Source of the DNA: Chiloscyllium plagiosum
Taxonomy: Eukaryota
DNA: 59,214 nt
NCBI RefSeq assembly: GCF_004010195.1
Contig: NC_057758.1
Coordinates: forward strand, 5,968,150-6,027,363
Reading direction: 5' to 3'
The notes beneath the pieces are model-generated. The model ran no database searches and was not told the origin of the DNA. It worked only from the letters and a program-made list of their open reading frames with translations. Shown here piece after piece: positions 1-59,214 of this stretch; positions within the stretch are counted from its first letter, which is position 1; every line of letters starts with the position of its first letter. A program made the translations under genes and the position numbers.

Positions 1-119
1 AAACAAGCATTAATTCATTCATTCTAAACGTGCTCCACTTCTATCTCTCCCACTTGCGTGCACCTATACACACACACACAGAAGGAGAGTCACAGCTAAA
101 GTGGGTTGAATCAATTCAT

Positions 120-500
120 CTGTAAGGGAGATAGACTAAGCTCAGATTGGTTTCTTTGGAGCAGCGACGTTCCGAGGAGTCCTGTTGGAGCTATTAATTA
201 TTATGAGGGTCACGGTCAGAGTGGGTACGATGCAACTGCTCCACTTCATTGAATTGGCCAGACCAAAGCGGAGAACATTTTAATGGAATGGCAGGTTTGC
301 AGACAGGAATGGAGGGAATAATTCGTCATTCATAGAGGGGTGGTAGTCTGAAATGCTCTGCCTGGCAGGGTAGCTGAGGTGGGAACACTGCACCCTTTAG
401 TAAGCACTGACGTTGATGGATGTGTGGGAATGTGGCCTCATGCAGGTTTTGGATGTCTTTGTTGGCAGCAGATACTTGATGGGCTGAAGCATCTCAAAGG
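120..500 (+). mobile_element. Degraded CR1/HER1-like LINE 3' fragment
   Basis: Resembles the LINE 3' end seen intact at 9881-10392 (LGLFSLE.RRL motif region; cagagggg tggtagtctgaaatgctctgcc). Boundaries are approximate. Confidence 0.55.
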
Positions 501-1249
501 AATTCTGTGCTTCAATGTATCTGTGGGTCTCCCTGAGTTTTCATGAATCACATTGGACTCAGTCTCCATAAAATAATCAGAATTCTGGAACGTTTATAGT
601 AAGCAAGGAAGACATTGCAGCCATCGTGCATGTACTGACTCCTAAAAGGGAAACCCCGCTTGTCCTGTCCTCAAATCCTCTCTCTGCAGTCCTCTCTAAC
701 TTCCAAACATATATCTGCTCTGTTGTCTGAAATCTGCGATGGAATTCACCTCCACCATACACCCAGGCAATGCACTCCACTCCTGATAATTCTCTGAGTA
801 ATAACTCCCAGTGGGACAACATGAGGGGAGTAAAGGAGAACAGGGACCTGGAGAGTGCTTTTCAATATGATCAGCAGTTGTCCCTGCAGAATGAAACAAT
901 CTTTAAGAAACATTTTGCAAATACTAACAAATTTAAGTCTGAAGACCTTTCTCCTCATCACATTCCCAGTTCTCTTGCTGAAATTCTTGAAATTAAAATC
1001 CCACTTACTGACCTACCAACAAGTAGAAAAAAAAAAATCCTTCATTACCCTTTCAAAATTGTCCACAATTTTTAGCATCTGAATTAAGTTACCTCTTCTC
1101 GGCGCCGAGGAGAACAAGCTCAGTTTCTCTATTCTTTCTTTCTCTTTAAAATCCTGCAATCATGGTTGACGATTCACACTGTTGGTAGTGCGCATCGGCA
1201 GTAGAGGGGCGGCTCGAGATATGTTGCGCACTAAGTGGCTGCTTTTCGT

Positions 1250-1440
1250 GGAATTGTGTCGAGTTTCTTGGGCATTGTCGGAGTTGCACCCGCTCAAGCA
1301 AGTCAGATGATTTCCATTGCAATCCTTACTTTCACCTTATAGATGGTGAACAGACTTCAGGGAGTTAGGAGATGAGTTACTCTCCCAGATCTCCCAAGAC
1401 TCGGAACTGTTTTTGTAAACTTCATATTTAAATGGCCGTA
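1250..1440 (-). mobile_element. LINE (CR1/L2 group) RT C-terminal fragment
   Basis: Reverse complement resembles the 13470-13620 segment (RVTHLLTP.SL.TIYK.VR..ME-like). Confidence 0.5.
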
Positions 1441-2228
1441 ATTTATATTCTGTTCAGTGTCAGATCAACAGTAACCCTCTGAACAGTAATAGCTTGTATT
1501 TAAAGGCAGAGAGAAGCTCCTTGTCTTCAAAAGGGTAGAATTGAAATTTCTTGATGACAACTCCATATTTGTGGCGGAACAACCCTGTCAGTAGTCGTGT
1601 TCCAGGAGATGTGTTCAGTGATCATAACAGTGTGGTGATAATCTCTAAGTCGTAAAAGTGCATTGTCTAAAGGGACATTGCCATCTTTAAAGATCACTGA
1701 TAAATTTCTCCTTGCTAGTTAAGTGGTTTACAAAGGTTGCTTCTCAAGAAATATTAGTTCCCTTCTGCCAGGATATTCTGCACACTCGACAGGTAATTAT
1801 GCAATGGTTTCGTGAATGGGGTACTTTTGTGACAACTCAAATCTGAAGTTAAACTGAACAAGCAAATCTACTACGTAAATCAGCTAACTCAAGACGGTCG
1901 CACCTAAAACTGTAGTATCCATAGAGATAAACTGGACAAGATGAGATTCTCCACAGGAGGAAACATTGAGGAAGTTATCAGCTCTCTGTAAACTGGAAGT
2001 TCTCAGTGTGTAAGCATTCTATAAAGGGGCATTTTTGTAACGCATAGTTTGATCACAGTTACAATTTTGTTACTTAGTGGAAGTTTGAAGAACAATTCTG
2101 ATAGTACAATGTTCTGAACTACATATGCAATCGAAGAATTAGAAAGAGAAACAACAAATTAGCGTGAAAAGGTTAGCTGCATTTTCGAAGGAAATGTCCA
2201 CCGGCACTGAAGAGCCCCAATATGTTGT

Positions 2229-2545
2229 GGACGGCACGGTGGCAAAGTGGTTAGCACTGCTACCTCATAGTGCCAGAGACCCGGGTTCAATTCCCGCCTC
2301 AGGTGACTGCCTGTGTGGAGTTTGTTCGTTCTCCCCGTGTCTGCATGGGTTTCCTCTGGGTGCTCCGGTTTCCTCCCACAGTCCAAAGATGTGCAGGTCA
2401 GGTGAATTAGCCATGCTAAATTGCCCGTAGTGTTAGGTAAGGGGTACATGTAGGGGTATGGGGGGTTGCGCTTCGGCGGGTCGGTGTGGACTTGTTGGGC
2501 CGAAGGGCCTGTTTCCACGCTGTAAGTAATCTAATCTAATTTAAT
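2229..2545 (+). mobile_element. HE1-type tRNA-derived SINE, near full length
   Basis: Pol III A box TGGCAAAGTGG and B box GGTTCAATTCC, a central conserved body (gtgtggagtttg..ttctccccgtgtctgc..gggtttcc), and a (taatc)n tail. Several related copies occur in the window. Confidence 0.9.
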
Positions 2546-3241
2546 CAAAAGTGATGAGCTGGAGAAGTGTGACGTCCATAAAGATAAAGGGCACTCGAGA
2601 GGGGAGAAGACATTACGACGAGGGAAAAATTGACAATTGAAACCTAAGTGCAATCGTTCCCTAATGGATTGTGGAATCTAGGCAAGTTTCATTTGATTGC
2701 TTCGTAAAGTTCTTTCGTGGTTGAATTTCAATCTTGTCTGTTGACTTTGAATGGATGTTTTTGCCAAGGAAAGGCAATTCGTTTTTCAAAGTTTACAGCA
2801 CAGGAAAAGACTCTTCAGCCTTCCAAGTCCGCTCTAATCCAGATATTCTGTCTCAACTTGTGAGCCGCTGGTTTGAACTCAGCCGGAGGTTTGTTGTGGA
2901 AAACTGGTTCGCACATTACAGGGAGAGCATCAGTGCTCTAGAGAATGTCCAGAAGAGATGCATACGAATTGAACTTGAATCTGTACGGGTAACTCTGGAA
3001 ACTGTAACAATACACATCAGGTCCTGTCATGTTGAGCCAGAATAGGCGACTTTATCTTTCGACCAGCACAGAGCTTTTGAGCTGAAAGTTCTCTCTGCTT
3101 GTGCCGTTACTTTACTGTGGTCCAATAGTTCTCTTCTCCTTGTCACTCGGTTAAATGGCAATGGGAATATTGTACAGCGTTCTGAGGTCCATGTATATCA
3201 GTGATAGCAGGCATCAGGGTTGGTCTGTCTCGACCGTTGCT

Positions 3242-4172
3242 TCAATAATGTCTCCCTTTCTGTTGGCAAGGTGGATTCTCCTCTTGTGCATTTGTCGGAG
3301 GAGTGTGCAGAGCGAATTGCTGCGATCCAGGAGAAGTATACATCGTTGTGTATTGCCCTGAAGGGTTACGCTGCTGTAAGAAGAAATAATTGAGACATTG
3401 GGAATGGTCCCATGTTTGCGACTCTTCTGAGCCTCCAACTGATACTTACTGTATTCCTGTTGCTCAGGCTCAGCTCCACTGAGTTAATTTCATCACCCCT
3501 GAAACATTACCTTCTGACTCGTGGCAATAAAACTTATAGCATTGATTGCAACCCCTTGTTCGTTACTCATTTTTCATTGTGATTTGTGTGTTTGCTCATA
3601 TTGACAGAAAGAGAGGGGGAGTTAAGAAAAGGCAAGAGAATACTGACATCTTATAGCTCCAATACAGTCAGCATTAGAGAATCATTGCTTACCAACAAGT
3701 CCCAGCTTCGATCAGGAGCAGTGCACATTCTATCCTTGCCCCACTAGAAGGATACAAACTCCAGAGTTGGTGGTGCAGTCGTGTCCACGGTGCGAAGTGA
3801 ATGACCCTGGTGACCCTGGATGTACTCACTGTTGATTCCTAACACTACGATATCTCAATACGTACGTCCTGACCTGAAAATGGAGGACTGATGCTGATTT
3901 TCCACCGTGTACCCTCCCTCAGCCAAACAAGCCGACCTCCTGTGAATTGAACATCACACAGAGGATGCTCTGACGGGAGGGTACGGCACAGGTCGGAATC
4001 TGATTTGCTCAAACGTAAATGGCGAACCACATCTAACAGTGGGATTCAGATTAAAAAAAAAACTGATCAGAGAAAGGTTCCACCAATACCCGACCCTGAA
4101 AGTTGTGGGAGTCCATCTGTCATTTTGAGTAACAACACTGAAGAGACTTTCAATTACCCCTCGTGCGTACAT
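3242..4172 (-). CDS. Candidate 4-exon small gene of unknown function (~100 aa); exons 4172-4095, 3873-3830, 3498-3450, 3373-3242
   Basis: All introns are GT-AG (donors GTCGGG, GTGAGT, GTAAGT; acceptors cattttcag, tgtttcag, ttcttcttacag). Phases 0/2/0 give one open frame: MYARGVIESLFSVVTQNDRWTPTTFRVRTYVLRYRSVRNQQGDEINSVELSLSNRNTQRNPSGQYTTMYTSPGSQQFALHTPPTNAQEENPPCQQKGRHY*. The first exon is the least certain. No family recognised. Confidence 0.45.
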
Positions 4173-7701: not shown

Positions 7702-7820
7702 TCATCTGACCACGCAACATTTATAAAACCAGAAACATTTATTAGGGACGATGTACTCATTTCCCCGACAAGGCCCCTGTCTACAGCTCCCAGGAATTCT
7801 GTCGCATCCAAAGATCGCCC
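7702..7820 (-). CDS. defb: Beta-defensin-like gene, coding exon 2 (mature six-cysteine domain)
   Basis: Acceptor ttgctttcctttcag|GG. Encodes (G)AIFGCDRIPGSCRQGPCRGNEYIVPNKCFWFYKCCVVR*, with C-X6-C-X4-C-X10-C-X5-CC spacing, GxC before Cys2 and a Glu after Cys3, matching the beta-defensin signature. Confidence 0.9.
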
Positions 7821-7864
7821 CTGAAAGGAAAGCAATTTCAGAGTATAAGTAGACAGACATTATG

Positions 7865-8130
7865 CACGGTGCTTCAAGTGTGTTCGGGAAAAGGGAAGTA
7901 TGACAGGAAGTGTGCACTGTTCTCCCAGTGTGGTCTGAGCAGGGGAGATAGAGATCGGGCCTGTACGCTATACTCCCAACGTGATCTGATAGGGAAGGTC
8001 GAGTCATGGTATGTACACTGTACTTCACTGTGGTCTATTATCGACAACGCAGTCAGGGAATGTACACTGGCATTCTTCTGTAATCGGAACAGGAGAGGTG
8101 GAGCCAGGGACTGAGCTCTGTGCTCTGCTT
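7865..8130 (-). repeat. ~50-bp degenerate minisatellite within the defensin intron
   Basis: tgtgcactg, tgtacgcta, tgtacactg, tgtacactg and tgagctctg fall at about 7911, 7962, 8012, 8061 and 8112 (period ~50). Confidence 0.65.
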
Positions 8131-8680: not shown

Positions 8681-8774
8681 CCCCATAGAGAAAGCGTCCT
8701 CTTAATCCACATGCAGACTCGATGGGATGTTCCAGCACCAGAAACACAAGCAACAAGAGCCGTGCTCTCCACAT
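8681..8774 (-). CDS. defb: Beta-defensin-like gene, coding exon 1 (signal peptide and N-terminus)
   Basis: ATG at 8774. Encodes MWRARLLLLVFLVLEHPIESACGLRGRFLYG plus one G, then a consensus donor G|GTAAGT. The 94-nt length gives phase 1, which joins in frame to 7820-7702. Confidence 0.85.
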
Positions 8775-14459: not shown

Positions 14460-15365
14460 CAAGCCTCACCTGGACGGCTATACACAATTCTCGTCTCTGT
14501 ATAACTGAAGTAATCCAAACGTACAGGACTGCGCACAGATCCGGTCTATGTAGCCCTACTTGGAAGACTGTGTGAAATTCTACTATCCACATGCTTCAGT
14601 TAAACTACCTTTACAACACTGTGCATGGAGCGAGCAGCGCAATATTCATTCTTTAGTCCGCATGCTTAGCACCGTGCTCAGTTCCGGCTTCTGTATACCA
14701 CAGGTAGAAAACACGAGGGTACAATGCATATTTGTGGTTACTCCGTCCATTGATTAGGCCACACTTAGTGCACTGTGTGCAGTTCCTCTCTCCATATCCC
14801 GCAGTAAGACGCCACGCATTATCTGAACATGCACATTGCTGGACTCCAAATCTCTCAGCACGATACTTTGTTCTGCTCTCCATATCCCTTGTGTATTTAG
14901 AGCACTATTCGCATTTCTGATCTGGATTTCGCATGGTGCGCCTAAAATGAGAGTACACAGCGGAGATCAAATCCTTTTCTCCCTCAGTTTGGTCACGTTT
15001 TGATAATTTCACGCTGTCCGAGACTTCTATCTCTTAGCAGAATTACTTCAAACCGCTGCACCGAGTTCTGTTCTCCAGATTCTATGACTGTACGTTTCTC
15101 TGAACTTCCTGAACAGTTCTGGTCAATGTATCACATTTCAGATCCCACTTAAAGCAATACGCAGTGCTCCAACAGCCGAATCCCCAGTTTATATAATGGT
15201 TCAATCCTTTTCCACAGTTCCTGTTCTCATGTGCTTCAGTCCCCAACCTCATACGTAGCACAATGCAAAGTTCTTATCTCTGTAACAGTTGGATACACCA
15301 CATCTGGAGCACTGCGCACAGATCTGGGCTCCATATCCCTTAGTTAGACCACACTCAGAACACGG
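14460..15365 (+). repeat. ~50-bp degenerate minisatellite array resembling the CR1 'LVRPHLEYCVQFWSP' segment
   Basis: Units such as ttaggccacacttagtgcactgtgtgcagttcctctctccatatccc and accacatctggagcactgcgcacagatctgggctccatatcccttagttagaccacac. acca recurs at 15297 and 15348. Confidence 0.7.
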
Positions 15366-18364
15366 TGTGCCTTTCTGGATATAGACTGGAAGAAATACAG
15401 AGAACTGTCGTCACTGCTGAGGTCAACGTTCAAGCCAACCTTCAATCCATTTACTCTACCTGCACTTCTCGTTGCAGTGGAATGAAAGGCAACATCATTA
15501 AAGACTCCTCCTACAGCCGTCATAATATCTTCTTGACTCTTAGAGTCATAGAAAGCCATCGAGTCCGACAACACGGAGCCAAGCCCTTTGGCCCAAACTG
15601 GTCCATGATGATAAAAATGTCCATCCCCATGTAAATCTTGCTTAGTCATACATTAGTACAAATGCGTTTTAAATATTGTTTATCTACCTGCTCAACTACT
15701 TCAACTGGCATCTCATTCAATATGCAGACCCTCTGTGTAAAACACATGCCCTCAGGTTTCTTTTCACTCTATCACCTTTACCCGTAATATTATGGCCTCT
15801 CGTCCTCGATTCCCTCGCCTTGGGAAAAAGACTGAGTGTATTGAGTCTCTTTTTACAGACTCAAGGCAGAAAAGCTTAAACACACATACCAAAACGTTCA
15901 ACAACGTCTTCTTCCCCGCTGTTCAGGACTTCTGAACAGACAAATCAGATCTGAAATTTCATGTTGACGTTGATTTCTGTACACGTTTGCAGTCGTAACT
16001 TGGTATTGCTCTCTCTGTTTTATCACCCCTGTGACTTTGTGTGTTGTGGTCAGCCATACTGCACGCAACACAAAACGCTTCGTTGTACTTATGGACATGT
16101 GGCAAGAATAAATCAAAATAAATCAAACTGACTTCTGGCATTGCTCTGCATCAAAAACAAGACATCCTCCAAAATCACCTGCCCAACACCAACATCGATG
16201 CAATCACATTAATATTAAAATTGAAAGCTGAAATATTGTTTGCAGGTAGTGATACATAAAAGTAGGCAAGGTCGACCCAGGGGAACATCATTGGCAAACA
16301 GGAAAGTAGAGATATGTGAAATGGCCAACACGGAGAAAGTGAGATAGAGAGAGAAATGAAAGCGATAGTCAGAGAGAATAATCAGGTAGAGGCAGCGAAA
16401 TAGAAACGCAAAAAGGAGATAAAGTGGGAGAGAGAGTTGGTGGTGGCGGGGGGGGGGGGGGCGCGGATGCAGAGCGAGCTGCTGGGAATTCGACAGATCA
16501 GGAATGGATCCGAATTGAAATAAACAGCTGTCAGCACCTTCCAGTATCCCAGGAGTTGTCAGAGTGGGACACGCACATGCCCTCACTGTGGACTGCTGTC
16601 ATTGATTTATTCGGGGAGACAAGACAGCTAGTTTGCACACAAAAGTTTCCATTGTTACCAAAAAAGTAACGGCTGGTCTGTTGGAGGTATACCTTTTGGT
16701 GTCATTTCACTATTGGGGGTGGCGCTGGGAGAGAGTTTGGAGAAGCCTTGAGGCCAGATTCCATGAAATACTTGATACTGGGAAGTTTTAAGAACCGGTA
16801 GAGATACATCAATGTGAACGGAGTGAAGGACAACTAGATAGAAAGTTACATTGCTTCCAACGTTGATTAACTGAATAACTTGCCATACGAAGGGAAATGC
16901 AAGCAGTCATGCCATTCCGCGTTGGAAGTATATAAGTAATTGGAAAGGGAAGTTTATTCAGAACCATCTGAAATAGAGTAGTGGTGTGTGGATAATCTCC
17001 CAGCCTCTTTTAAAGACCCAAACGCATCATTTCTTGCCCAATTGCAATGTGTTTAAATGCAGACTTGGACTATTTTTGTTTTCCCACATGCTATTCTTGT
17101 TGTCAACAATCAGCAACAGTTCTTCAATCTGAACAAAACATTGGCGTGATTAAATAATCGGGTTTTTGTGTCCTCGGTTTGATGTGGAGATATGACTAAT
17201 GAACTCAGCCCTCTTTGCTCAGAGGTCAGAAGATTAGAAAGGATTCTTTCTTAACACCACAACTGCCCTCGGTAACTTGCCTGTTATTGTTCGCTCTTTA
17301 TGACTAATGCATTCGTTGAGAATTAATTGGAGATTAACTTCTTTATCTTCAGGGATACAACATCAGGTTAAACGCCAAGAAGCGGACACACTTGACAGAA
17401 ATACTTCTATTTAAGGAATGCGGTGTGATTATCTCTCATTGCTATCGACGTCAGTCAGTCTGTTAAATATTTGCCTTTAACACGGATCGTACCGGCAACA
17501 AGGCTCAATTCAGTCTCCGAGGTTTCGACAAAGGCTGCAATGTCCAACTGTAAAACCTGGTTAGAATCCAGGATCTCATTGTGTCTTCAATACACATACC
17601 TAGTGTCCCATATTTTAGACATTGCATTACCGTACACAATGTAGACTGTGGAGATGCCGCATATTGAAACATCAACCACCTCACACGCTTCACATTGAAT
17701 TTCTGTGGATAACAAAGTTTACACAATGCTAAGTGTCAAAATATCAGTAACCCAACACAGTAGTTGTTGTATTACTACTGGTATTGCTTTGCTGCAGTCT
17801 ATACATTGATGATTGTTCAAGCCAAACAATAGACATTGTATTACAGCAGACAACGCATAGATAGCTATTCTGCTCCAGAGTAGACATTCTATTCCTGTAG
17901 ATGATACACACTTTGCACACTGCTGAGTGTCCATGTGTCAGTTCATTTAGAGCTTATAGTGGAATGTATGCACAATACACAATCTGAATACTGCTGATTA
18001 CTTGAATATGAGTCCTCCCAGACTGTCCACATTGCATTACTGTATATGTGTGAGTCTGATAAAAGACATATTTATATATGTACATATGTGTGTTTGTGAG
18101 AGTATGTGTGTCTGCATTTGAATGTAAGTTTGTGATTTGTGTGTTTATCTGTACATGCATGATGTGAATGAGTCTGTTTGTGTGAATGTGAGTGCATATC
18201 TATTTGTGTGAGATTTTTTGTATGACTGCGTTTGTGGCTGTGCATGTGAATGGGTGTGAGTCTACGTGCATATCCGTGTGTGTGAGTGTGCGTTTGTATG
18301 TATGTGAATGTATGAGATTACGTGAAAATGTGTTTCACTGTGTGTGTCTGTTTCTATGAGAGTG

Positions 18365-39085: not shown

Positions 39086-40139
39086 TTTGGATACCAGAAG
39101 GTATTGATAAGAATGTTGCCAAGAATGGTGTTATTGAGCTTTATGGATGGGTTCTGTGTGTTTTTCTCTGCAGTATCAGAAAAACATCATAATATTTTCC
39201 CATGATCTGCTCTCTCTGTGCATTTGCCTTCAGAACAAAAACATTGTGGTTATCACTGATCTGCTCAGGCTACCTATGTGAAACCAGATTCAGAGCACTC
39301 TATTTCACACTCATCTACTCTACCTCTACCTGTGACTCCAGAACACCAGCACTGTAAATATTATCATCTATACTGTCTTTTCATTCTACTCCAGACCCAC
39401 AGAACAGTATCTACCACTGAACCGCTGTATATAACTCCAGGCCAACTGCATTATGGTCACCACAATCTGCAATATCTCTGCTTTTAACTCCAAACCCATA
39501 GCACTGTGGGCAACACCGATCGTCGCTGTCTCTACATGAGACTCCAGAAGCACAACAGTTTGTTTATAATTAACTTGCTGTCTCTACATGTAACTCCAGA
39601 CCCACGGGCTTGTGGTTACCACTGACCTGCTCCCTCTCTACATCCGCGTCCTGACACACAGCGCTGTGGTTACCGCTTACCTGCTCTGCATCTGCATTCG
39701 AATCAGACCCACAGCAATGTGTTTAATCCAACCTGCGTTTATCTATATTTGACTACAGACTCAAAGCACTGTTATGAATGACCTGCTATGTAACGACAGG
39801 CAGAAAGCACTGGGTGTTCTATTAATCTATTCTGTCTTAATATATGCCGTATGGCCGACGTAATTTCGCTTTGAAATAATCTACTTTCTATCTGCATGTG
39901 ACTCGAGGCACAAAACATGGTGATTACCAATGACTTGCTTTGTCTCAATATGTAACTCCAGACTCAAAGCACCGTGGTTGCCATTGGCCTATCCTGTCTC
40001 TACATTTGAGAGCAGGCCCAAAGCACAGTTGTTCCCAATGACCTGATATCTATCTACACGAGACACCAGTCCACAGCACTTATAGTTACCACTGGTCCAC
40101 GCTTTTTCTGCACTTGATTCCAGACTTACAACACTGCCC

Positions 40140-41750: not shown

Positions 41751-43927
41751 TATTACAATATTGTTGTCAATGTCTCGGCAAGTAACTTCAGACAGCAGCA
41801 CTGTGTTTCCCCTGACCTACTCTGTCTCCAGACGCACAGCTCTGTGGTTAACCTGACATGCTCTGTCCTGATGACTGAAGACCTCCAGCACTGCGGTTAG
41901 CACTCAACTGTTCTGCAACTGCATGCGACTCGTGACCAACAGCACTGTCGTATTGCCTGATCTGCTTTTACTCGACATGTGCTTATCAGAGTCCTATCTG
42001 GCTCTGTACGTAGCTTCAGACACAAAACATTGTGTTAAGCACTGGCCTTGTCTCTTTCTACATGTGACACCAGAACTTCCGTGATGTCCTTGCCACTGAC
42101 ATGCTGTGTCTCTTCATATGACTCCTGGTTAAATGTACTGTGGTTCTCATTTACTTGTGTTATCTCTGCATTAAACTCCAGCCCCACAGTACCTTGGTTT
42201 CTATTCTCTGCTCTGCCTCCAAAGGTGAATCTAGATACACAGCAATCTGGTTATTATTGACCTGCTGAGAGTATACATGTCACTGCGAACCCACAGCACT
42301 ATTGTTATAACTGACGTGCTCTGGCTCTGCATGCGACCTCAGACCCACAGCACTATGGTTGCTGTTGATCTGCTATGCCTATACTTATGATGACAGGACT
42401 GCTTTTACCAACACTGAGGTCTGGATGTATTTGTGAATCCAGAACCACAGTTGCATTAACCTACTCTGTCTATACTTCGTGACTTAATGATAACAGCAAT
42501 GCGATAAATACAGACCTTCTCATCCCTTCAATCGAAACCATAGGCACAGCGCTGTGCGTACTACTGGCCTGCCTTGTCCCTATATTTAACTCCAGACTCA
42601 AAACGTAATTATGATCTTGACCCCGTCTGTTGCTGCACGTGAAGACAGATCCACTTCGTCAGCGTTGTCACTGACTGCGAATGGAATGTTGGCCTTTCTT
42701 TCAAATGGAATGTCGCAAATGCCTTCACCAAGCCGTCAAGCAGCACATTCTATTTTGGATCAACTACTGCACCTATGAAACTTATGCACTCTGGTCTTAG
42801 ACATGGCACTCTAGGGAAAGAGATTTTCATAATCTATACGTCTCATAATTTCCCATTCCTCCTCAGTAAATCCAACCTTCCCAGTCACTTGTCATAACTG
42901 AGAACTTCCATTCCAGGTAACATCATGCTGAATCTCGTCTATTATGTCTGAAGTGGAAGCAGGACTTTCCAACAGTGTGGTGAGCAAAGCTACACTCAGT
43001 AATCCCACTATGGTTGATGCAATGATTTATAATTTTGTAAAGTGACTTCCTTGCTTCCAATTTCTAATGACTTAAAAGTGAAATCAATACGTATGCCCTT
43101 CGTATAACTCTGTCTACAGGCGTTCACATCTTCGGAGACCTACTAACTTGCACACCAAGTTTCCATCGTTCCTCAATACGTCCGGGGGCCTAACATACAT
43201 TGTGCACATCCGTACCCTATTAGACTTCAAAAAAGCATCAGCTCACACTTTTTGGGATTAAATGTTTATCTGCCATAGATCTGCGAATTGAACAAATGAG
43301 CATTATCAAACTCAAAACTGAGATTATCTTCCTCACGATCAACAACACTATGGAATTCGAGTCATTTGCAAACTTACTAATTGTCGATTTACTTTCTCAT
43401 CCAAGTTGTGAATGCATAGTCCATATTCAAGAAATAGACATCCATTACTTTAGAGGAAGGAGGTTGCCATTTAAAACGTTGTGAGTGCTTGGAATTCCCT
43501 TTCTCAAAAGTTAAGGGTTGCAAATAGATTAGATTTTGCTTTCAGGCTGATGTCAACATATTGTCGATCATTGACAGGTGAAAATTGCTCAGCAAATGCG
43601 TAAGACATCATAGTTGACGTCCAAAAGAATCAGCCACGACATTTTTGCATAGAAAACCAAAGAACTGGGAATGCTGTAAATCAGAAAGTAAAACAGCAAT
43701 TCCCGGAAAAGTTCAGCAGTCTGGCAGCATTTGTGGATCCAAATCAGATTTAAAGATTCGGGGCGAACTACCGTTCCACAGAACTGTGTTGCCTTTCTTA
43801 GTTCTGAGGAAGGATCACTTGAATCGAAAAGGTGACACTGATTTACCATGACAAATGCTGCCAAATCTGCTGAACGTTGCCAGCTATTTCAGTTGGTCAT
43901 GATCTCATTAAATTGAATTGTATTAAA

Positions 43928-44572: not shown

Positions 44573-45979
44573 AATTCTCCAGAGAAATGTACAACACAGG
44601 AACAAACCCTTCCGCCATCATGTCTGTGACGATCAGTGTGCTACTCTACTATAATAACATCTACCTTCACATGGTCAAGATCGCTATACAGTTGACATGT
44701 TCATCCGTCTGTCTAATTGCCTGTTACCTTTGCTCTTATATCCAATTTTACCACTTTCCTGGCAGTGTATTCCGGACATCTGCCACCCTCTTTGTAAAAA
44801 CAAACTCTCAAACATTTTCCCCTGTGCCCGATATGAAGCAACATTGCAAACTTGGGTGTTTTATATACTTCTTTCAGATCGCCTCCCAGCATCAAACCTC
44901 GAGGACAAATCATCCAAATTTGTCATAAGGCTTTTGGTGACTCATCATCTCCGATCCAAGCAACATTATGGTAAAACTCTTTCCGAGTACAACACAGGAA
45001 CAAACCCTGCAGTGTGACGACAATCAATGCATCTTACCCATTTTCTGACCACTCCCTTCCTCCCTGTTCCTGGGAAATTGATTTGAAAGTTGCTGACTTC
45101 CACCCATACTGACTCTGTAAACAAACCCTCATCGACGATCATCCTTTGTGCAGCTATAATATTATCGCTGATTAGCTTTGCCAATCATCCATTTCTTTTC
45201 CGCCCCACACACCCAATTCGTTTTGAAACATCTAAACGGTGGAACATCCAACAACTATTCCTGCCTCTTTTGTATTCAATTATCCGTAATGGGCACGAAA
45301 TGACAGTTCCAAGTATTGATCCAGATTTGGAGTTCTGAACGCTCATTCTTGATGCTTCTTGTATTAAAGTAGACACATTTCAACGCATCACACTGACTGC
45401 ACCTTTGCACAATCTAGCGCCTGTCCCTATTTACAGACCCTCTGCAAGCTGTATCTAGTGCATCACTGCCTACTGCAAAATTGCTCCATGGTGCTGTTTT
45501 CACCACTCCTGCTTTTCTAGATTTAACTCTCCCAAAGATCTCTAGCACACCTCCTGTGGTGCCCCTCCAGTTCAGATACAATACATACTTCTAAAGATCA
45601 CATATTTTCCAGAATGTATCCAATACGATACGGAAATTATGGATTTCTGGTAATCGTGTCTACTCTGACATTAAATCATGGCTGATAGGTTTATCATTCC
45701 CATTCCCCCGCTTTCCCCCATAACCATTCTCCTGCTTTCCCCTCAATAATCAGGAAACCATCTGTCTCAAAATTAAGTACACGCAACGACCTAACTTGCA
45801 AAAACGTCTGTGGCAATAAATTCCAATGATTCACCAATCTCTGGCTAAATTCATTTCTCATTTCTCGGTGTTTAAAGTGCTTCCTTTCACACCCAGGCTT
45901 TGCTGTCGGGTCCAATTCTCTCCCATCAATTGAACCATCTTCGCAAAATTCACTCTTATATCTGCCCATTTAGTATTCT

Positions 45980-48260
45980 GCTTCTGCACTGCAGCGAATG
46001 TAAATGCAAATCTCCAAATATCCATCTCTCTGTCACCCTTGTGGGTTTGGGGAAAATGATCAGGATTTTGACCCAGTGAAGAAGGTGGTGAAATTTGGAC
46101 AGAGCCTCTGAAATGCCGAGATAGTGAGATGGGATAATGCTGGGATATTTCAGAGCGTGTGTATAGATGTTAATTATTTAAAGCAGTCAAGAACGCGGCC
46201 TTTGGAATTCTGTACTCATAGCAACGGGGTCTCTCTCGTTGTCTTTTTGTTGGACTATTAGGCTTCCAACAACTCAGCTCCAGGGAGTTAGGACGGACCT
46301 TGTCCAGAAACGCTCCACACAATATCTGGCCTGCGAGTCAGGCAGATATGTCATAAGCAAAACCGACGGACAATGTGTAGTGGAAACAGAATACGGAATT
46401 AAGGACATCAAATCGATGTGAAGCGAGTCGACAATCAAACCAGGTAGTTGCAGTTAGAGAATGTGTGTGTGTGTGTGTATGTGTGTGTGTGTCTGTGTGT
46501 GTCTGTGTGTGTCTGTGTGTGAGAGAGAGTGAGAGAAAGAGAGAGAGATTCATAGCAAATGAGATTGTCTTTGAGCGGCAGAGATACGAATGTAGAGAGA
46601 GTGGCAGAGGTGGAGTAGCAAGGACAACGAAATGGAGAGCACGACAGACAGAGAAGGAAAGACAGAAAGCTAGACAGAGTGAGCAACGAGTCGGGGAGAG
46701 TATGAGTTGCACACAAAGTCACAGATACAAGGGAGACAGAGAGAGTGAGAGGCGGAAAGTGAAAGAGATTGATTCAGTTTATTACACCGAGTAAAACTGA
46801 AACGAGAGAAAGTGAGTGGGACAATGTGAGCAAGGGTGACAAGCGACAGTGAGAGAGTGAGAGAAAAGTATATAGAGAGGCAGTCAGAATGAGAGTGACA
46901 GAAAAAACTGAAGAAAAGGTAGAGTGAAGATCAAAGACAGATTGAGCAACATATTGATGAAAGGAAAATGAATGAAAGAAATGAGGGAGTGAAAGGTAGA
47001 CAGGCAGTGATTCAGAAACAGAGTAAGATAGAGCAGCATAGGTTCCCCACTCACTGGCTGAAGACGTTTCTCCTTATCACTATTCTTAAAGATCTTCCAA
47101 ATACCATCAAGCTGTACTTTAATATCCTATTCTCTCGTGCCAATGAACACATCATCTCAATATCCACTCTGATCAGATCATTCACTATTCTGCTTCTACA
47201 CCATAGGGATTCAAAATATAAAGCTTCGAATAGCCATCTCCCTGTAGCCAGTTGAGATTGGGAAAACGAACATCAGTTGAACCCAGTGAAGGAGGTGATG
47301 AAATTTGCACAGAATCTCTGAAATGCGGATGCAGTGTGCCGGTGAAAGCCCGGGATGTATCAGAGAGTGGGTGCACAATTTACTGATTTCAAGCGGCCAT
47401 GGATTCAGCCGGTGGTGATCCTTCATACCAGGAACGAGGGTGTTCTAATCGCCTTGTTGTGGGTCTGTTCGGTCCAGACCTACTCAGCCCCAAGGGGTTA
47501 GGACGGACCTTGCACAGAATCGTTCCTAACAATATTCTCGCGTCGAACAGCACCACACAAGACAAATCGGCAGACATCGCCCGGTCACTTTAGAGTAAAG
47601 AAGGTGATGCAGCGTATTTCATTCACCGTGTGAGTGCGGAATGTATTTCATAGGAAAAACTGCTGGAAAATATACAAGGGGAGCAGAATCCGGAATCAGA
47701 AACTAAAAATAGTTGTGAAGACAGTAGACAAAGAAACCAGGCAGCTACAACGAGAGAGTGAGAGACAGAGACAGAGACGGAAATTGGGATAAGTGAATTG
47801 TGCGTGTGTTAACTGCAGAGAGGAATGGAGAGAGAGTGCGAGAGACAAGGAGGGACGGATAGTGAAACAGAGAGCGCGACAGACAGGGAAAGAGTGGCAG
47901 AAAATTGGAGAAAGTAAGAAAGGAGAGGGGAAGAGCGAATGGCAGAGAACGTCACAGATACAAGTGAGGCAGTGGGAGTGAGAGGCGGCAAGTGACAGAC
48001 AGTACGACATATTGTTACACGGTAAGTGAAACTGAGGCGACACAGAATGAGAGACAATGTATGTAAGGATGACAAGAGACTGAGAGAGGGGAGAGAATGA
48101 GGTGTAAATAGAAATCATCCTAGATACAGACGAAGTGAGAATGACAGAAAAAGTGACAGAGAGACAGAGTGAAAGACAAACACAGATTGAACAATATATC
48201 AATGAAAATAGAAGGAATGAGAGGAATTGTGAGAGAAAAGAGGGAGTGTAATGCAGACAG
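45980..48260. repeat. Old tandem duplication (~1.1-1.2 kb unit: about 45980-47030 versus 47180-48260)
   Basis: Shared blocks acccagtgaag.aggtg.tgaaattt, ctctgaaatgc, gttaggacggaccttg, gtcacagatacaag, agtgagaggcgg and acagattga.caa.atat. Confidence 0.75.
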
Positions 48261-49908
48261 ACAGGACATAGAAAAGGGGTAAGACATAAAGGGGGTAGCG
48301 AGAGAGTGAGTAGGACAATAAAATGACAGCAGAGTGAGAATGATGAGAAGTTGTGAGATAGACAGACATGAGTACAGGCAAAAATAAAAGAGATAAAGAG
48401 AGCGACAGAGTGAGTAAGCAAGAAAATAGGAAGACAGAAAGTGAGAGTAAGACAGAGTGTGTGAGACGGCAGAGGTAGAGTGAGAGAGAAGTAGAAAAAT
48501 GTTGAGAGTCTGTGAACAAGACAAAAACAAAGTAAGAGACAGAAAGGTGTTGGGACTCTTTGCCGATATTGACAGACTGTTTTTACTGGTCTCTTCCAGT
48601 TACCTGTTTGGAGGTCTCCGCCTTTACTTGACTCATAATGTGTGGTTTTTGGAGACCATTCCTGTGGAACTAGAATTGTAAACGGTGCAAAATTCCCTCT
48701 GTCCTCTGTACACTCCCGGCTTGGAGGAGCTGACAGGAAGAGGAAAAGTATATTCTTCCTCTTCCTTGGATTCATGACCATGTCTCTGTCCAGAACTCTG
48801 CATTGCCACGGAGGCATGCCATCCACACAGGCCATTCGCCACCACATGTGGGCGTGTGAGTGGGGCTTGTCGAGTAGCTGGCTGGCATAGTGAAAGTATA
48901 GTACCCGCTTTCCCAGGAGATGGTAGCTGAGCTTTATTCCAGGCTTCACTCCACTCAGGCCTATTCTTACCAGTAATCCTCCAGTTCCCGTGAGTACACC
49001 ATCTGACAGTGTCTCCTGTGATATTTGCATGCAAAGATTGAAAGGGGGAACAGAAACTGGTTAGTCAGCCAATCAATTCTGTTCCACCATTTGGTCTGAT
49101 CATGGTTGATCTTCTTAAGATAGAGTCATAGAGTAACACAGAATGGAAACAAATCCTTGGGGCCGAAAATGATCCATGCAGACTATGGTGCCCAGTCAGA
49201 TAGATTCAATTGCCTGCATTTAGTCCATATCCGTCCACTCCTTCCCATCCATGTACATATCCCAAAGCTTTTTAAAATATTGATGCTGCACCTGCCTCGA
49301 GCATTTTCTCTTGCATCCCATTCCACATATGCACCACTTTCTGGGTGAAGAGGTTGCCCAACGGGTCTTTTATAAATCTTTCCATTCTCACCTGAATCCG
49401 ATGCCCACTAGTTTACCCAACCCTGGGTAAAAATACAACATGCACTCATTAACACTTCTCAATAAGATCACCCTTCATTCACCTACCTTCCAAGGAATAA
49501 AGTCCGACCTTGGCAATACTTTTCGTCTGACTCTTGTCGACTGGTCTTGGCAACATCCTCTTCATAGAACGAGAGATACAGGCAGAGAGACCAAACACAG
49601 AAATTCGTAAACTAGTGTTGGACCTCAGCCACTGGGACCATTCAATATGACTTTTGCTGATCATTTTCCCTTAGAAAGAAAGACAGAGACAAAATGACAA
49701 AGAGATGCACCCACACAAACACAGAGAGAGAGAGAATCCAAAACACATAAAATAGTAACATGCATAAACCATTCGGCCCCTGACTCCTGCTCCACCCTTT
49801 CACATGACCAGGTCTGGTCCTCTCCTGGAGGGTCAGGCAACCAAACAGATAGACTGGCAAGCAGAGAGAAATTCACACAGGCAGAGAGCGAAAGACCGAG
49901 AACCATGC

Positions 49909-52652: not shown

Positions 52653-52921
52653 GGAGTTCCATGATGGCAATGTGTCCCTCCCGTTTTCTGACCTGTCCAT
52701 TTCGCCTGATATTGTGCGTGTACACTAATCCCAGTGAAAAACCTAATGATGGGCAAGAAGTGGTGTTAATGCAGTAAGATGTGTTGTCATCTTTTGGAAA
52801 TCAACGGGACAGTGGATGGTTATATTTAGAGAGTCAAGCAGAGACTGAACTATAAAAAATACAGCTAGCATTAATTGAAATTCAGATGAGTCTCAAAGTT
52901 GGGAATATTGCACTTTTTGTA

Positions 52922-53074
52922 TCATATAATAAAACAGCAGATGGCATTGAAGGAATAACTCCTCCTGTGGATAATCTCATTTGCATGACAGCCGTCTTCT
53001 GTGGGCAATCTCATGCACAAGACAGCCTTCTTCTCTGCAGATCCTTTCATCATCCTCACATTCCAATACATTAA
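52922..53074 (-). pseudogene. defb: Beta-defensin paralogue, exon 2, disrupted by a 34-nt internal duplication and a Cys4-to-Tyr change
   Basis: Acceptor cttcctttccgttctcag, phase 1. Removing one copy of the duplication (53034-53001 versus 53000-52967) leaves 119 nt, the same length as 7820-7702. It then reads NVLECEDDERICREDGCHANEIIHRRSYSFNAICCFII* (C-X6-C-X4-C-X10-Y-X5-CC). Confidence 0.8.
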
Positions 53075-53479
53075 CTGAGAACGGAAAGGAAGTCTCAATT
53101 AATAAAACGGTCATTAGACTCGGATATAAAAACAGAATCAGACTGTGCACGGTGCTCCTAGTATGGCTGAAGAGCGGTATTTGATTAATAGAACAGTGTA
53201 AATTATTACCAGAGTGGTCTACCTTAGAGACATGGAGATTAAAACTATGCACAGGGTTCCAAGTGTGGTATAACTTCGAAGTAGTTGAGACAGGTACATT
53301 AGCAAAATTGAAGGGCATCTGACCAACTACATGAATAAGAAATATTTCAAAGGATATAAGTCTAGTGCCGGCAAATGGGTTTATCTTAGGTAGACATTTT
53401 GGCCAGCGTGGACCAGTTTGAGCCAAAGGGCATGTCTTCATGCTGAAGGACTCAATGACTCCAGACGTAAGTGACATAG

Positions 53480-53900
53480 AGCCAAGAAATGCATACAGTG
53501 TTCCACATATGGTGGAAGTGAGGGTTATTGGTTATCAAAATAAAGTTCAGTGTGCCCAGTTAGATCTGACCAAGGCATATAATGACCAGAAGAGTGTACA
53601 GTACTCCAGATATAGAGTAAGAGACGCGTTTGATGATCAGAACAGTACATAGCTTCCAGTATGATCTGGCCTCGATACATCAGGATTGGAAATGTGCATA
53701 GTACTCTAAGCGTGGTTATTGAGGGACATAGAGAGCAGAACAGTGCATAATGCTCCATGTATGATCGGACTGAGGAATATGTTCATCAGAATTTTGCACA
53801 GTCGGCAGATATGCTTGAACTTAGGGACATGGTTACCAGGAAAGTGCACAGTGCTCCAATTAAGTTCTAATAGAGGGACGTGTCAAAAACTGCATAGCTT
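53480..53900 (-). repeat. ~50-bp degenerate minisatellite, same family and orientation as 7865-8130
   Basis: cagaa/cagga-initiated units at about 53588, 53638, 53736, 53787 and 53837. Confidence 0.7.
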
Positions 53901-54169
53901 TACAGAAAAGCAGCCGATATCTCGCCTTCTTTCAGAATTTAAATTTCTGACATGACTGAATCACCTGGAGATGACTAAATAACCCGTTGACTGGATGACA
54001 TGAGCAGCTGACATGTCACACGATTATTTCCTTCAGTGGAAGTGATTGGGTGCAGGGAGATTGTTAAAATCAGTCTGGGAATGTGGTGAGGTTTGGACGC
54101 TTTTAGGCATATTGTAGCTCCGTATCATGAGGAATAAATGACCAAGACAGAAGAAAGACAATCACGTAC

Positions 54170-54275
54170 TTTCCCAGAAACGACATTTGGAGGAATGCAG
54201 GTGACGTGCAGGATCAACTGACTGGAGATCATTATCAAAGAGGAGTAACACGAGATCAATTGATCTGAGTTCTAA
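54170..54275 (-). pseudogene. Possible degenerate exon 1 of the defensin paralogue
   Basis: Reads LELRSIDLVLLLFDNDLQSVDPARHLHSSKCRFWE plus A|GTACGT. This is phase 1, compatible with 53074. It has a short hydrophobic core and weak similarity to HPIESACGL. No in-frame ATG seen. Confidence 0.3.
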
Positions 54276-54867
54276 CTGCGGTGTAAAATTGATGGAAATT
54301 ATCCCCCAAATGCAACATGTTAGAGGGAAATACAAGTGAAGTAAGAATCGAACTGTGGCTGATAGGCGTTTTTGGCTATTTTATTGAAAACTATTGGAAG
54401 GTGCAGCCAGAGGAAGGCGTGTAAGCTTGTCAGAAGATAACACTTAAAAGGCATTTGAATGAGTATATGAATAAGAACGCTTTTGAAGGCTGAGGGACAA
54501 ACAAAATGTGATATTGCTGGTGAACCCTGCAGATCTGGCACCATCTGTGAAAACAAAGCAGTTAATATTTTACTTCGCCATTCACAGTGAAACCCTCCCT
54601 CCACCTTCAAGGCCCGGTAGAAGCAATACATCCCAACTACAAAACGCATTGCATACCTGCTCCAAAGATCCTCAGACAGCATCTTCCAAAACTATGAACA
54701 TTTGAATGTGGAAGGACAAGTGGAACACCACCTCCTGCACGTCCCCTTCCAAGGCACTCACTATCCTGACTTGAAAATATTTCGCTGCTGTTTCATGTTT
54801 GCTTGGTTAAAATCTTGGATATTCTTTTGTAATGGCACGATGGAACTGACGTGCAAAACATGGAACA

Positions 54868-55513
54868 NNNNNNNNNNNNNNNNNNNNNNNNNNNNNNNNN
54901 NNNNNNNNNNNNNNNNNNNNNNNNNNNNNNNNNNNNNNNNNNNNNNNNNNNNNNNNNNNNNNNNNNNNNNNNNNNNNNNNNNNNNNNNNNNNNNNNNNNN
55001 NNNNNNNNNNNNNNNNNNNNNNNNNNNNNNNNNNNNNNNNNNNNNNNNNNNNNNNNNNNNNNNNNNNNNNNNNNNNNNNNNNNNNNNNNNNNNNNNNNNN
55101 NNNNNNNNNNNNNNNNNNNNNNNNNNNNNNNNNNNNNNNNNNNNNNNNNNNNNNNNNNNNNNNNNNNNNNNNNNNNNNNNNNNNNNNNNNNNNNNNNNNN
55201 NNNNNNNNNNNNNNNNNNNNNNNNNNNNNNNNNNNNNNNNNNNNNNNNNNNNNNNNNNNNNNNNNNNNNNNNNNNNNNNNNNNNNNNNNNNNNNNNNNNN
55301 NNNNNNNNNNNNNNNNNNNNNNNNNNNNNNNNNNNNNNNNNNNNNNNNNNNNNNNNNNNNNNNNNNNNNNNNNNNNNNNNNNNNNNNNNNNNNNNNNNNN
55401 NNNNNNNNNNNNNNNNNNNNNNNNNNNNNNNNNNNNNNNNNNNNNNNNNNNNNNNNNNNNNNNNNNNNNNNNNNNNNNNNNNNNNNNNNNNNNNNNNNNN
55501 NNNNNNNNNNNNN
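54868..55513. other. Assembly gap (N run)
   Basis: Seen directly. Confidence 1.
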
Positions 55514-57545
55514 ACAGAAGCCTGTGGTCAACGCCTCAGGAATCGAAGGAGGTAGAATGGGTAAACCTACATGGAGTATGAAAGGTTCAAACAGAGTAAT
55601 TTTGACAGGTGGATAGGACCGTTAAGATTTGAGCAAACCTATGATGCCCTAAGAGAGGTAACTGTTTTGGATGAAATCAAAAATCCACTGCCTGATATGT
55701 AGCGAATACCTGTGCAAGACCAGAGAGTTAAAACAATAAGTTTAGCATCTGAAGTGGCTGATAACTATGAGCTGGTCTATAAAGCACAGTTTGTCTTTTA
55801 TAACCAATTTCAGTCCATGAGGGATAGAAACTGGGGAAAAGAGAATTCCTCACGTGGAAAGGGAAGGTACATTTCATTGAAGATCAGAAAGATAACGTAC
55901 CAAAGAATGAAAATAAAGAAATCCTTGAGGGGGACAAATAACTTAAAAGGCTTCGGTGTTTTCATTGTCATAAAGTGGGCCACACGAAATCACAGTGTTG
56001 GTGGGATCGGAGAAAGCCAGATGTCGGAAATTCAGACAAGCCTGGAAGGTTCGTTGGTCTAATAACAATAAGCAAAAGTGAAGTTACACAAATCTCTCAG
56101 AACGTACAAGATGATCAGAGATTGATTAAGGAGGATGTTCTAGATCTGCTTAAAAATATACATGCAAGCTTAGGGAGTATTCACGTCGGCCAAAGGTAAT
56201 ATGTAGCGGGCTTATAATATTAAGCGACACAGGATCCTCTCAGTCTATAATGCTAATGGATGAGGAGATATGCACTCTTGTGAGGTTATTGCCAGAAGAA
56301 GTGCTGGTAACAGGAATTCTGCAATAGGAAACTGAAACAAATTATGCTCGGTTACGTGAAGTGCGTCTGGAGAGACCAGAGAAGTGTGCAGATATTGTGG
56401 TAGGAATACTGGACAGACTCAGCTCCAGGAATACGATTTATCCTGACAAGTGATATAGCTGATTCACCAATTTGGAGTAAGTTAACGGTGGAGAAAGAGT
56501 CTTTTAACATAGTTTTAGCATTACAACATTTCAATATTTATATTACCAGCAAGTTATCTGAGACAATTGTACACGCAAATCACAACAAATTCACATTTTT
56601 GGAAAAATGTCAGGTCAAAATTCCAGACTTTTTTAATGGTGTTGTTAGAAGCGATTCAAGTTCAGAATTGTGCATGTGACAACTCGCGAAAATATGATTT
56701 CTGATGCGTTATGAAGACTCGGATGAGACAAGGAAGTGCATGACGGCCTGAATTTCCATACGGTTGTGCATGTTTCCATGTTTATACTTAGTAAAGTGTA
56801 TTTTTATGTGTTCAGACTAACCGTGTTGTGAAAGGTTAAAAATGAAGCCATCTTCTAAAGTCGATGGTTCATTTAGTAAGTGGGTAGGTGTCAGAAAGCT
56901 ACCCTTCTTTATTCGTCAAAACTGTTTCGTGGCTCAAGAAGACTCTGGCCTTGATTTTTTTTAGAGAGGGCAATAAACCAGGCCGGGTTTCGATCAGTCT
57001 GATTTGGTAGAGAGATTAAAATGATTTGGAGAGGCTTTCAGTTTATATGTAAACAGATCAGACTTCAGGCCAAATTGGTCATGTTTTGGAAGTGACCTGA
57101 TTAATGGAAGGAGAGTGGTCAGATCTGTTGATAGCTGAGTTGAGCTAAGCAGTTTTAGTTCATTCTTGAACTGGTTGGAAGTTGAACACGGAGCTGTGTG
57201 GAAACTCTCTCTCTTTTCTGTCATTCAACTTCAATCTGTTAGCATGTGTTCTATTTATACCGAATTTTAATTTGATTTTGCTTATTGGGACTGTTGTGTA
57301 TATTTGGAACAGCATAATTTAGTTGAGTTGGATAGGGTGAGTTCTGTAGGAATTTTTTAATCTGTTCTTTCTGGTTCGTTGTGTAATTTTGTGAATAAAT
57401 GTTTGTCTGCTTTAAAATGTAGTACTCAACCTAGTTATCTTAATCCGGGTAAATTTCACTGCATACTTACCGAAACCAATTGCAAACTTATGGTCTGTGG
57501 CTGCATGCTTAAGAATATTGTGAATGGCAGGCCTAGCTCGTAAGA
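55514..57545 (+). mobile_element. Internally deleted Gypsy LTR retrotransposon (Gmr1-like): gag, protease, RNase H end, and 3' LTR at about 56889-57545
   Basis: gag-like 'QDQRVKTISLASEVADNYEL'; CCHC knuckle 'RCFHCHKVGHTKSQCW' (~55950-56000); protease 'IILSDTGSSQSIML' (~56215-56255); RNase H-like 'LALQHFNIYI...IVHV..RENMISDAL'. A purine tract is followed by TGTCAG at the LTR start. Confidence 0.8.
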
Positions 57546-58379
57546 AAAGGAACCGGATGAAACTTGAAATCGATAGTGAGCGCTGCCTCGGTTGGTTTGT
57601 TCTGACAACATTTGCAGAGTTTTGACAGGCAAGCTCTGCATGTGGTATCTGATGGAACAACCTATAGCCGTAGTTCATCCCAACATCGAACAGTGCAACT
57701 CAAAATGAGTGCTTCAAGCTCATTTTAAAATACAGGGAGATCCATCCGAACACGTAGAGTTTTGGCTCAGCCACATTCACCGAATGAATGTGGAAGAAAA
57801 TTGTCTTTCTGATCTGGATGGGCAACACACTGGGGTCAGCGTTTTCAGAGTATAGGCATTGGTCATTGGAGACTGTTGGCTCTTGTTGGGGATTTACATA
57901 TTTGACAGGAGGGCTGATGGAATGGGGCCAGAAAAGCATAAAGAGAAATACGCGGTGTTGTGTGCAACATTGGGGACATAACTTCAGCGTTGAGAGTGAA
58001 AAACATGTTCCCATCTCAGCTGCAGTCTAAATCAAACCTCTCCCTCCTTACTTGCATGGAAGGAGGAAGGGGAATCCAGAATCCTATGCCCATTAAGCTC
58101 TGCATTTGGAATAGAGGCTGGTTCGATCCCAGCCCCCGAGGGAATTTCGCACTTCCCTGTGAACCACAACAGGAGCTGAAAGACAAAAGTCTTTCACAGT
58201 CGCGTTGGATTATTGGAGGGGAGACTGCCATTGCTCCATCCATTGCACAGGGTCATTCATCAGCTGGTCATGTTGGGACAAGCCTCTGTAATGAGTGGAA
58301 TTTGAAACAGAACCTTCTGTCTCAGAGATAAATAGAATAGGAAATATCAGGAGCAATTCAGCAGCTCTGGCAGCACCTG

Positions 58380-58640
58380 CATGCACTCAATTCCCAGTGT
58401 CTGCGTGGGTTTCCTTTGGGTTTTGCGGTTTCCTATCACAGATCAAAAATGTGCAGGTTAGGTGAATTGGCCTTGCTAAATATTCCATGGAGCTCAAGGA
58501 TTTGTAGGGTAGATGCATGACTAAGGAGATATGTAAGTTTGTAGGACAGCGGACTGCATCTCGGTGTGTTACTCTTCTGAATGTCGGAATGGGCCCATTG
58601 GGTCGAAAACCTGTTTCCTCAGTGTCGGGATTCTATGAAA
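58380..58640 (+). mobile_element. HE1-type SINE, 5'-truncated
   Basis: gtgtctgcgtgggtttcc...atgtgcaggttaggtgaattggcc.tgctaaat. Confidence 0.8.
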
Positions 58641-59214
58641 ACAGAGTGCATGTTTCGCAGCCACATTCAAAAACAAAATCTGCTCCCAGCACCATGGAAG
58701 CTCAGAAACAACACTGTCCCATGTGCATGATGAGCTACAGAGATTCTCCAAACCTCTCTGGAGATTTCCTCACAAGCCAAGGTGAGAGGAATTGTCAGAG
58801 GTCTTTCAGGGGATGCTGTGAGATAATTATGCATGAGGCAAATGCCCTGCCATGATTTAAGAGATTGTTAATGTATTAAGCTCCATTGAAGCAACATGGA
58901 TGCCCAGATTTTAGCTTCACGATCTGTCCAGTTTCTGCTGTATTTAGCACAATGTCTATATCCAACAACAGAACTGTTTTCTCAGTGAAGGCAACATTTC
59001 ATCTTCACCAGACTGAGTGATCTGTATTCCTACTAATGATGATATGGATAGATGTATTTGAGGCAGGAAAATCGTAAGAAGGAAGGCAAGAACGATATTC
59101 CCCTTTTTGCAGTTTCCCTCGCCAGGAATATTTTGGTGTTCAAATCTCGGATAATTGAAAGAATCATTGGAGAAACCGAAACGTTCAGGGTGGAGGCGAT
59201 TCATGTTCGAAAGT

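Follow-up and report, generated by a model that had tools for sequence, protein, structure and literature searches.

A probable unprocessed pseudogene of an acidic beta-defensin with an internal 34-nt tandem duplication in a shark-type defensin cluster

Analysis of the 59,214-nt stretch of DNA studied here (hereafter, the window) revealed a broken mature-peptide exon that, as judged from its sequence, is most likely what remains of an acidic beta-defensin gene, an unprocessed pseudogene within a shark-type defensin cluster. The exon carries two independent lesions, a 34-nt tandem duplication and the replacement of the fourth conserved cysteine (Cys4) by tyrosine, and sequence comparison demonstrates its descent from a six-Cys, 119-nt mature-peptide exon. 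The elements of the broken exon are as follows:

52922..53074, minus strand: the broken exon itself, encoding the mature peptide of a beta-defensin-type gene; 153 nt as it stands and 119 nt after removal of one tandem copy
53075..53100, minus strand: AG splice acceptor and polypyrimidine tract of the broken exon, phase 1
53001..53034, minus strand: tandem copy 1, 34 nt, in frame and containing Cys3; four of the seven differences between the copies appear derived here
52967..53000, minus strand: tandem copy 2, 34 nt, out of frame, the source of a new fourth cysteine and of an early stop at 52979-52977
52955..52957, minus strand: TAT (Tyr) replacing the Cys4 codon TGT, by base comparison with relatives
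52934..52939, minus strand: Cys5-Cys6 codons, downstream of the early stop

Two further exons of the same type, both intact, lie in the window, one of them with a recognizable first exon:

8681..8774, minus strand: exon 1 of the intact neighbour gene, signal-peptide-like, with a phase-1 donor
7702..7820, minus strand: exon 2 of the intact neighbour gene, 119 nt, six cysteines, two acidic (D/E) and six basic (K/R) residues
3271..3389, plus strand: third cluster member, 119 nt, in which one extra cysteine is added to the shared six-Cys spacing

All three exons, the broken one in reconstructed form, are 119 nt long and read in phase 1, with four residues ahead of Cys1 and identical cysteine spacing. 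The 3271-3389 exon encodes seven cysteines, the extra one immediately before Cys3, and is followed by an AATAAA signal at 3526; no first exon for it was found within 1-3270. A relaxed six-frame scan of the window (threshold of at least five of the six cysteines) returned six-of-six matches only at 7820-7702 and 3271-3389. The original prediction had described the broken exon as a paralogue of the minus-strand intact gene in a cluster evolving by birth and death; the paralogy and the birth-and-death reading stand, and the cluster is extended by the plus-strand member at 3271-3389, to which the prediction does not refer.

In searches with the intact exons, the 3271-3389 exon yielded weak matches to PF17333 DEFB136 (E 0.13) and to 2lwl, human DEFB106 (E 0.11). 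For the 7820-7702 exon no Pfam family was recovered, the clusters neighbouring it in the Atlas are of beta-defensins (0.85, with 182 features in common), which serves as a lead only, and its structural model (pLDDT 78) presents three strands. In both fold searches with this model defensins came first, with a best Foldseek E of 0.3 and no match at 0.001, and VIA returned a middling best Z of 3.8 (rmsd 1.8, 35 aligned). By these signals, weak but consistent, the two intact exons are defensin-like. The broken exon itself matched no Pfam family up to E 10 and gave no usable Atlas match, and the single-sequence model of its 31-residue peptide (pLDDT 57, pTM 0.22) says little either way. A PDB sequence search with that peptide returned one unrelated match (E 2.9), a profile search against 1.84 billion representatives returned two long repeat proteins that were rejected as artefacts, and a word-index search with the broken exon and both neighbours, over proteins 22-74 residues long, yielded no candidate.

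Read in phase 1, the broken exon begins with four residues followed by C-x6-C-x4-C. Its acceptor AG (53076-53075) is preceded by 22 bases containing 16 pyrimidines, a count equal to that at both intact exons, and has the top pyrimidine content (14 of 17) among the AGs in 53200-52940. Removal of either 34-nt copy leaves 119 nt ending at a stop at 52924-52922, with Cys1, 2, 3, 5 and 6 of the pattern C-x6-C-x4-C-x10-C-x5-CC kept, tyrosine at Cys4 and eight D/E against four K/R, a charge for which the term acidic covers the mature-peptide exon alone, without the first exon. As it stands, the duplication shifts the frame past the Cys3 loop and translation ends before Cys4-6, at 52979-52977, giving 31 residues with four cysteines, eight D/E and six K/R. 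The description of the exon in the original prediction was accurate throughout: strand, phase and the four residues before Cys1 agree with the intact 7820-7702 exon, the reconstructed length, cysteine spacing and TAT at Cys4 are all as given, the reconstructed peptide is indeed acidic where the intact exon has two D/E and six K/R, and the exon unaltered does encode a four-Cys peptide.

The two tandem copies are identical at 27 of 34 positions and differ at seven, as the original prediction had reported, and Tandem Repeats Finder (TRF) delineates the repeat at 52965-53034 (period 34, 2.1 copies, score 91). Purine-rich look-alike runs, 34 nt apart, bound the duplicated unit. Hand reading against the letters of relatives assigns about four of the seven changes to copy 1 and three to copy 2, and six of the seven are nonsynonymous in the original frame, approximately the share expected without selection.

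Vertebrate beta-defensins (PF00711, PF13841, PF17333; among them 7t9q crocodile CpoBD13, 7lzl mallard AvBD3 and 2lwl human DEFB106) occur as clustered paralogues, as here. The available text of one study gives their spacing as C-X4-6-C-X3-5-C-X9-10-C-X5-6-CC and places a phase-1 intron before the mature-peptide exon (PMC11874394), and the read-through broken exon resembles them in its phase-1 intron and in a cysteine spacing that fits at every position bar Cys4. It departs from them in retaining five of the six cysteines when read through and four as it stands, none of these with its native partner. The disulphide pairing described in part of another source is C1-C5, C2-C4 and C3-C6 (PMC8698591); with tyrosine at Cys4 and Cys5-6 beyond the stop, all three bonds are impossible, and any peptide made, deprived of these disulphides and of the last strand, would not work as a defensin. 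A six-Cys frame is not recovered in the broken exon through another acceptor or through an internal donor. The exon is a beta-defensin by descent that, judged as a working gene, falls short of both the six-Cys pattern and the disulphide pairing.

Comparable broken members are on record. Among 354 beta-defensin genes of galliform birds, seven pseudogenes are described, four of them arising by frameshift, and in the same partial text an avian beta-defensin is called a pseudogene when a frameshift precedes its last conserved cysteine (PMC11874394); in the broken exon the stop at 52979-52977 likewise precedes Cys5-6 (52939-52934). The mouse cluster, in the available portion of its description, contains a four-Cys locus, OTTMUSG00000019857, in addition to 22 defensin pseudogenes (PMC2807441). 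Like the galliform pseudogenes and the mouse locus, the exon analysed here is a broken member with a frameshift before the last cysteine, lying beside intact paralogues; unlike them, its lesion is a diverged 34-nt tandem duplication, in a shark-type genome.

To score the broken exon, we derived an ungapped BLOSUM62 profile from the two intact exons alone, with the broken exon excluded. With copy 1 kept, its score of 12.0 was reached by 11 of 100,000 shuffles; with copy 2 kept, a score of 24.0 was reached by none of 100,000, and position 53072 was the best non-self start among 118,126 window positions when one 34-nt deletion was allowed (24.0; next 14.5), the score reflecting mostly cysteine spacing. 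The reconstructed peptide thus outscores shuffled sequence on a defensin profile, as had been anticipated, the profile here comprising the two intact exons only. At the DNA level, the intron end and broken exon rank third of 2222 windows compared in likeness to the 7820-7702 neighbour, and the weakness of this likeness indicates that the paralogy between the two genes is old. A comparison of the two introns was set aside as unspecific, since its score of 97.5, above all 200 shuffles (maximum 94), was exceeded by other stretches of the window (98.5 and 110.5). Cysteine patterns at 42062, 39536, 35232 and 24476 were likewise discarded, since they fall within repeats or open sequence and are missing an acceptor or part of the spacing. 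The resemblances at 1941-1961 and 805-1114 were rejected as well, 109 and 68 of 500 shuffles, respectively, scoring equally high.

An assembly artefact or a chance cysteine pattern is, on this evidence, highly improbable. The best sequencing runs contain only 0.53-0.57 of the window's words, with no raw reads of the window's own sample among them, and the broken exon has no Pfam, PDB or Atlas match of its own; against this, the intact 7820-7702 neighbour is also without a Pfam match, the profile score is the best non-self value of 118,126 positions, relatives carry the six-Cys form, and assembly stutter is ruled out because it would yield identical copies, whereas seven of 34 positions differ here.

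Sequencing data from relatives bear on the polarity of both lesions. Words were shared with the stretch by 20 of 24 sequencing runs (up to 0.57 for organism A, 0.07-0.08 for organism B and 0.06 for organism C), and the contigs of three DNA runs, X2 (organism A), X14 (organism B) and X20 (organism C), were aligned to 52700-54400. The relatives' contigs are unitig pieces in which the exon is never whole, and orthologue and paralogue are not separable with certainty; the alignments reported are the best-supported ones. In organism B, two joints fall short of the window by 34 nt each: the first skips 69 letters with 35 between (depth 8.79), the second skips 57 with 23 between (depth 40.5), and hand translation of both reads Cys3, ten residues, Cys4. 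In organism C, a single contig (depth 3.67) presents a loose end with the same reading. Hence at least three contigs from organisms B and C are free of the 34-nt duplication and keep the Cys3-x10-Cys4 spacing. The Cys4 base at 52956 accounts for 70.4 of 70.4 depth in X14 and for 63.5 of 121.9 in X2. Since organisms B and C are without the additional 34 nt and with Cys4, both the duplication and the tyrosine are derived in the window, and the check suggested in the original prediction, to look in related species for an unduplicated form, turned out as expected, with an unduplicated exon carrying Cys4.

Organism A is closer to the window. Intron and flank differ by approximately 1-2.5% on both sides of the exon, and a near-identical contig (X2 record 10; two differences in 271, depth 58.3) already carries the tyrosine; it ends at 52993 with its last letter mismatched, so that the duplication junction is outside the matched part. 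No 34-nt skip occurs among the X2 joints listed, and summed depth across the unit shows no dip in X2 (140, 135, 121), compared with 162, 51 and 65 in the unduplicated X14. These data weakly suggest that organism A carries the duplication, summed contig depth being weak evidence.

The two tandem copies diverge by 20.6% (95% interval 8.7-37.9%), far above the approximately 1-2.5% that separates the window from organism A (at 1.6%, P about 1e-6). This excess suggests that the duplication predates the split from organism A. The divergence is also somewhat above the 5-10% seen against the closer contigs of organism B (P 0.029 for at least seven differences at 9%; P 0.19 when adjacent changes are pooled as five events), so that recombination of diverged alleles may have given rise to it. 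The lesion could be young, a null allele private to an individual or species that arose, for instance, by out-of-register crossing-over between diverged alleles, with other haplotypes unduplicated. The excess of copy divergence over what the flanks predict, the fast divergence of defensin loops (10 of 33 bases between the organism B loops), the end of the near-identical organism A contig short of the junction and the discussion of null alleles for quail AvBD6 in part of PMC11874394 would all fit such an origin, which we nevertheless regard as decidedly unlikely. The near-identical contig of organism A, with 58.3 of the 121.9 depth at 52956, already has the tyrosine, and an unduplicated haplotype would hence still have five cysteines; neither a 34-nt skip among the listed joints nor a depth dip, itself weak evidence, points to one; and, with intron and flank only about 1-2.5% from organism A on both sides, the 5' side does not derive from a distant paralogue.

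More distant copies, 12-16% different from the window, span the intron and 3' flank in both organism A (X2 records 9, 14 and 16) and organism B (X14 records 1 and 4), and the diverged copy of organism A (depth approximately 22) has flank letters in common with the organism B copies. X2 records 9, 14 and 16 have about half the depth of the near-identical copy (approximately 22 versus 45-58), an imbalance that may reflect copy-number variation or the collapse into one of two young copies of the window's gene. Between the two Cys3-Cys4 loops of organism B, a hand count gives 10 differences in 33 bases, of which one is silent, so the loop of intact copies would appear, from these two sequences only, to evolve fast. 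In organisms B and C, a sister copy contains an extra cysteine within this loop (X14 joint 52963-53021 and X20 record 17), and in X20 record 17, a single low-depth contig of organism C, Cys1 is apparently two residues nearer to Cys2; tentatively, the sister copy may be a rearranged-cysteine defensin.

For the unprocessed pseudogene, these observations are compatible with a sequence of events in which the gene would have arisen by whole-gene duplication, as related copies parallel it through the intron and 3' flank, and would then have become redundant; replication slippage between the two purine-rich look-alike runs would have generated the 34-nt duplication, and both 34-nt copies would subsequently have drifted.

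We also examined the capacity of the locus to be transcribed. A scan of 53075-59214 found no ATG-led exon with a hydrophobic core and did recover the first exon of the intact neighbour; it is not a strong test, because it missed the first exon of the intact-looking 3271-3389 member. Two features upstream of the broken exon are relevant here:

54868..55513, no strand: assembly gap of 646 nt, which could conceal the true first exon
54170..54275, minus strand: candidate upstream exon of the original prediction, with a phase-1 donor and no in-frame ATG

The candidate with its donor at 54170 found no support. It contains a short hydrophobic run and no ATG over 70 open codons, matches the neighbour's first exon at 26 of 51 ungapped bases, a value equalled or bettered by 16 other non-self positions, and ranks 15th of 1065 donors by likeness to that exon; it is possibly a relic first exon. 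A hydrophobic frame near 58370 was also rejected, as it lies within an apparent repeat and has no in-frame ATG. Downstream, no AATAAA or ATTAAA occurs within approximately 900 nt behind the broken exon (the nearest is at 52003), compared with polyA signal distances of about 115 and 137 nt at the intact exons, and a weak variant of the signal, AATATA, lies at 52826. Transcripts with an early stop in the last exon are not expected to undergo nonsense-mediated decay. A transcript from the broken gene is thus possible, given the intact acceptor and a last-exon stop that would escape decay.

The intact acceptor and the position of the stop would also allow a living gene remodelled by frameshift, in which an as yet unseen first exon would lead into a secreted, acidic, 31-residue four-Cys peptide with a basic tail. 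The shifted frame supplies a fourth cysteine and hence an even number, the in-frame copy has amino-acid changes at three codons, the substitution at 52994 leaves an Arg unchanged in the shifted frame, and cryptdin-related genes of altered cysteine number are described for mouse clusters in part of PMC2807441. Sequence considerations nonetheless make such a gene unlikely: every native disulphide partner is gone, the first exon was not found in 53075-59214, a single silent site is no selection signal, and the comparable four-Cys mouse locus was judged possibly pseudogenic by its annotators (same partial text, PMC2807441). It seems equally improbable, from the same sequence, that the duplication was retained because it made an expressed four-Cys peptide with a new disulphide pairing, an acidic head and a basic tail; if so, the peptide would be a new scaffold born by frameshift, in a shark defensin cluster with cysteine rearrangement under way in the sister copies too. 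Between the two outcomes that the original prediction had left open, a pseudogene is therefore much the likelier, and a frameshift-derived four-Cys variant is retained at low odds.

Several other repeats were observed in the window. Local duplications at 50092-50822/51920-52652 (93%, 734 nt) and 49905-50093/51168-51371 (89%, 204 nt) lie directly behind the broken exon and exclude it, and an old tandem duplication of approximately 1.2 kb pairs 45830-47028 with 47043-48284 (68-69% identity). A degenerate motif of about 50 nt occurs in the introns before both minus-strand exons (53140-53900 and 7860-8060, minus strand) and also at 14640-15380 on the plus strand, where no defensin exon was found. 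Degenerate 54-nt tandem arrays at 39250-40100 and 41780-42450 (minus strand) present chance defensin-like cysteine patterns.

Acidic fish beta-defensins and frameshifted defensin pseudogenes are both already known, as far as the available text of PMC8698591 and PMC11874394 goes, and recent duplication within defensin clusters is described for birds (PMC3161384, in part). The olive flounder fBD is an active anionic beta-defensin according to portions of PMC8698591 and PMC8116387; the acidic gene of the window resembles this fish beta-defensin in charge only, and differs from it in that fBD is intact, six-Cys and expressed, whereas the broken exon is not six-Cys. Given fBD, antibacterial and chemotactic activity is conceivable for an acidic ancestor, and by analogy with other beta-defensins the intact ancestor was most likely a secreted host-defence or chemotactic peptide. 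The antimicrobial-peptide section of a 2019 review names no shark defensin (PMC6795676), the available text of a shark skin proteome paper names defensin in its references only (PMC10707392), and no paper on a shark defensin cluster was found by titles and abstract openings, a coverage that excludes subscription journals.

Taken alone, the broken exon is most likely one dead gene copy, an ordinary member of a fast-turnover cluster. It is of modest value as a case of probable gene death, with its polarity established, in a defensin cluster of sharks about which little seems to have been published. The intact sister copies in relatives, with loops diverging faster than their flanks and an extra cysteine, would be better targets for functional work.
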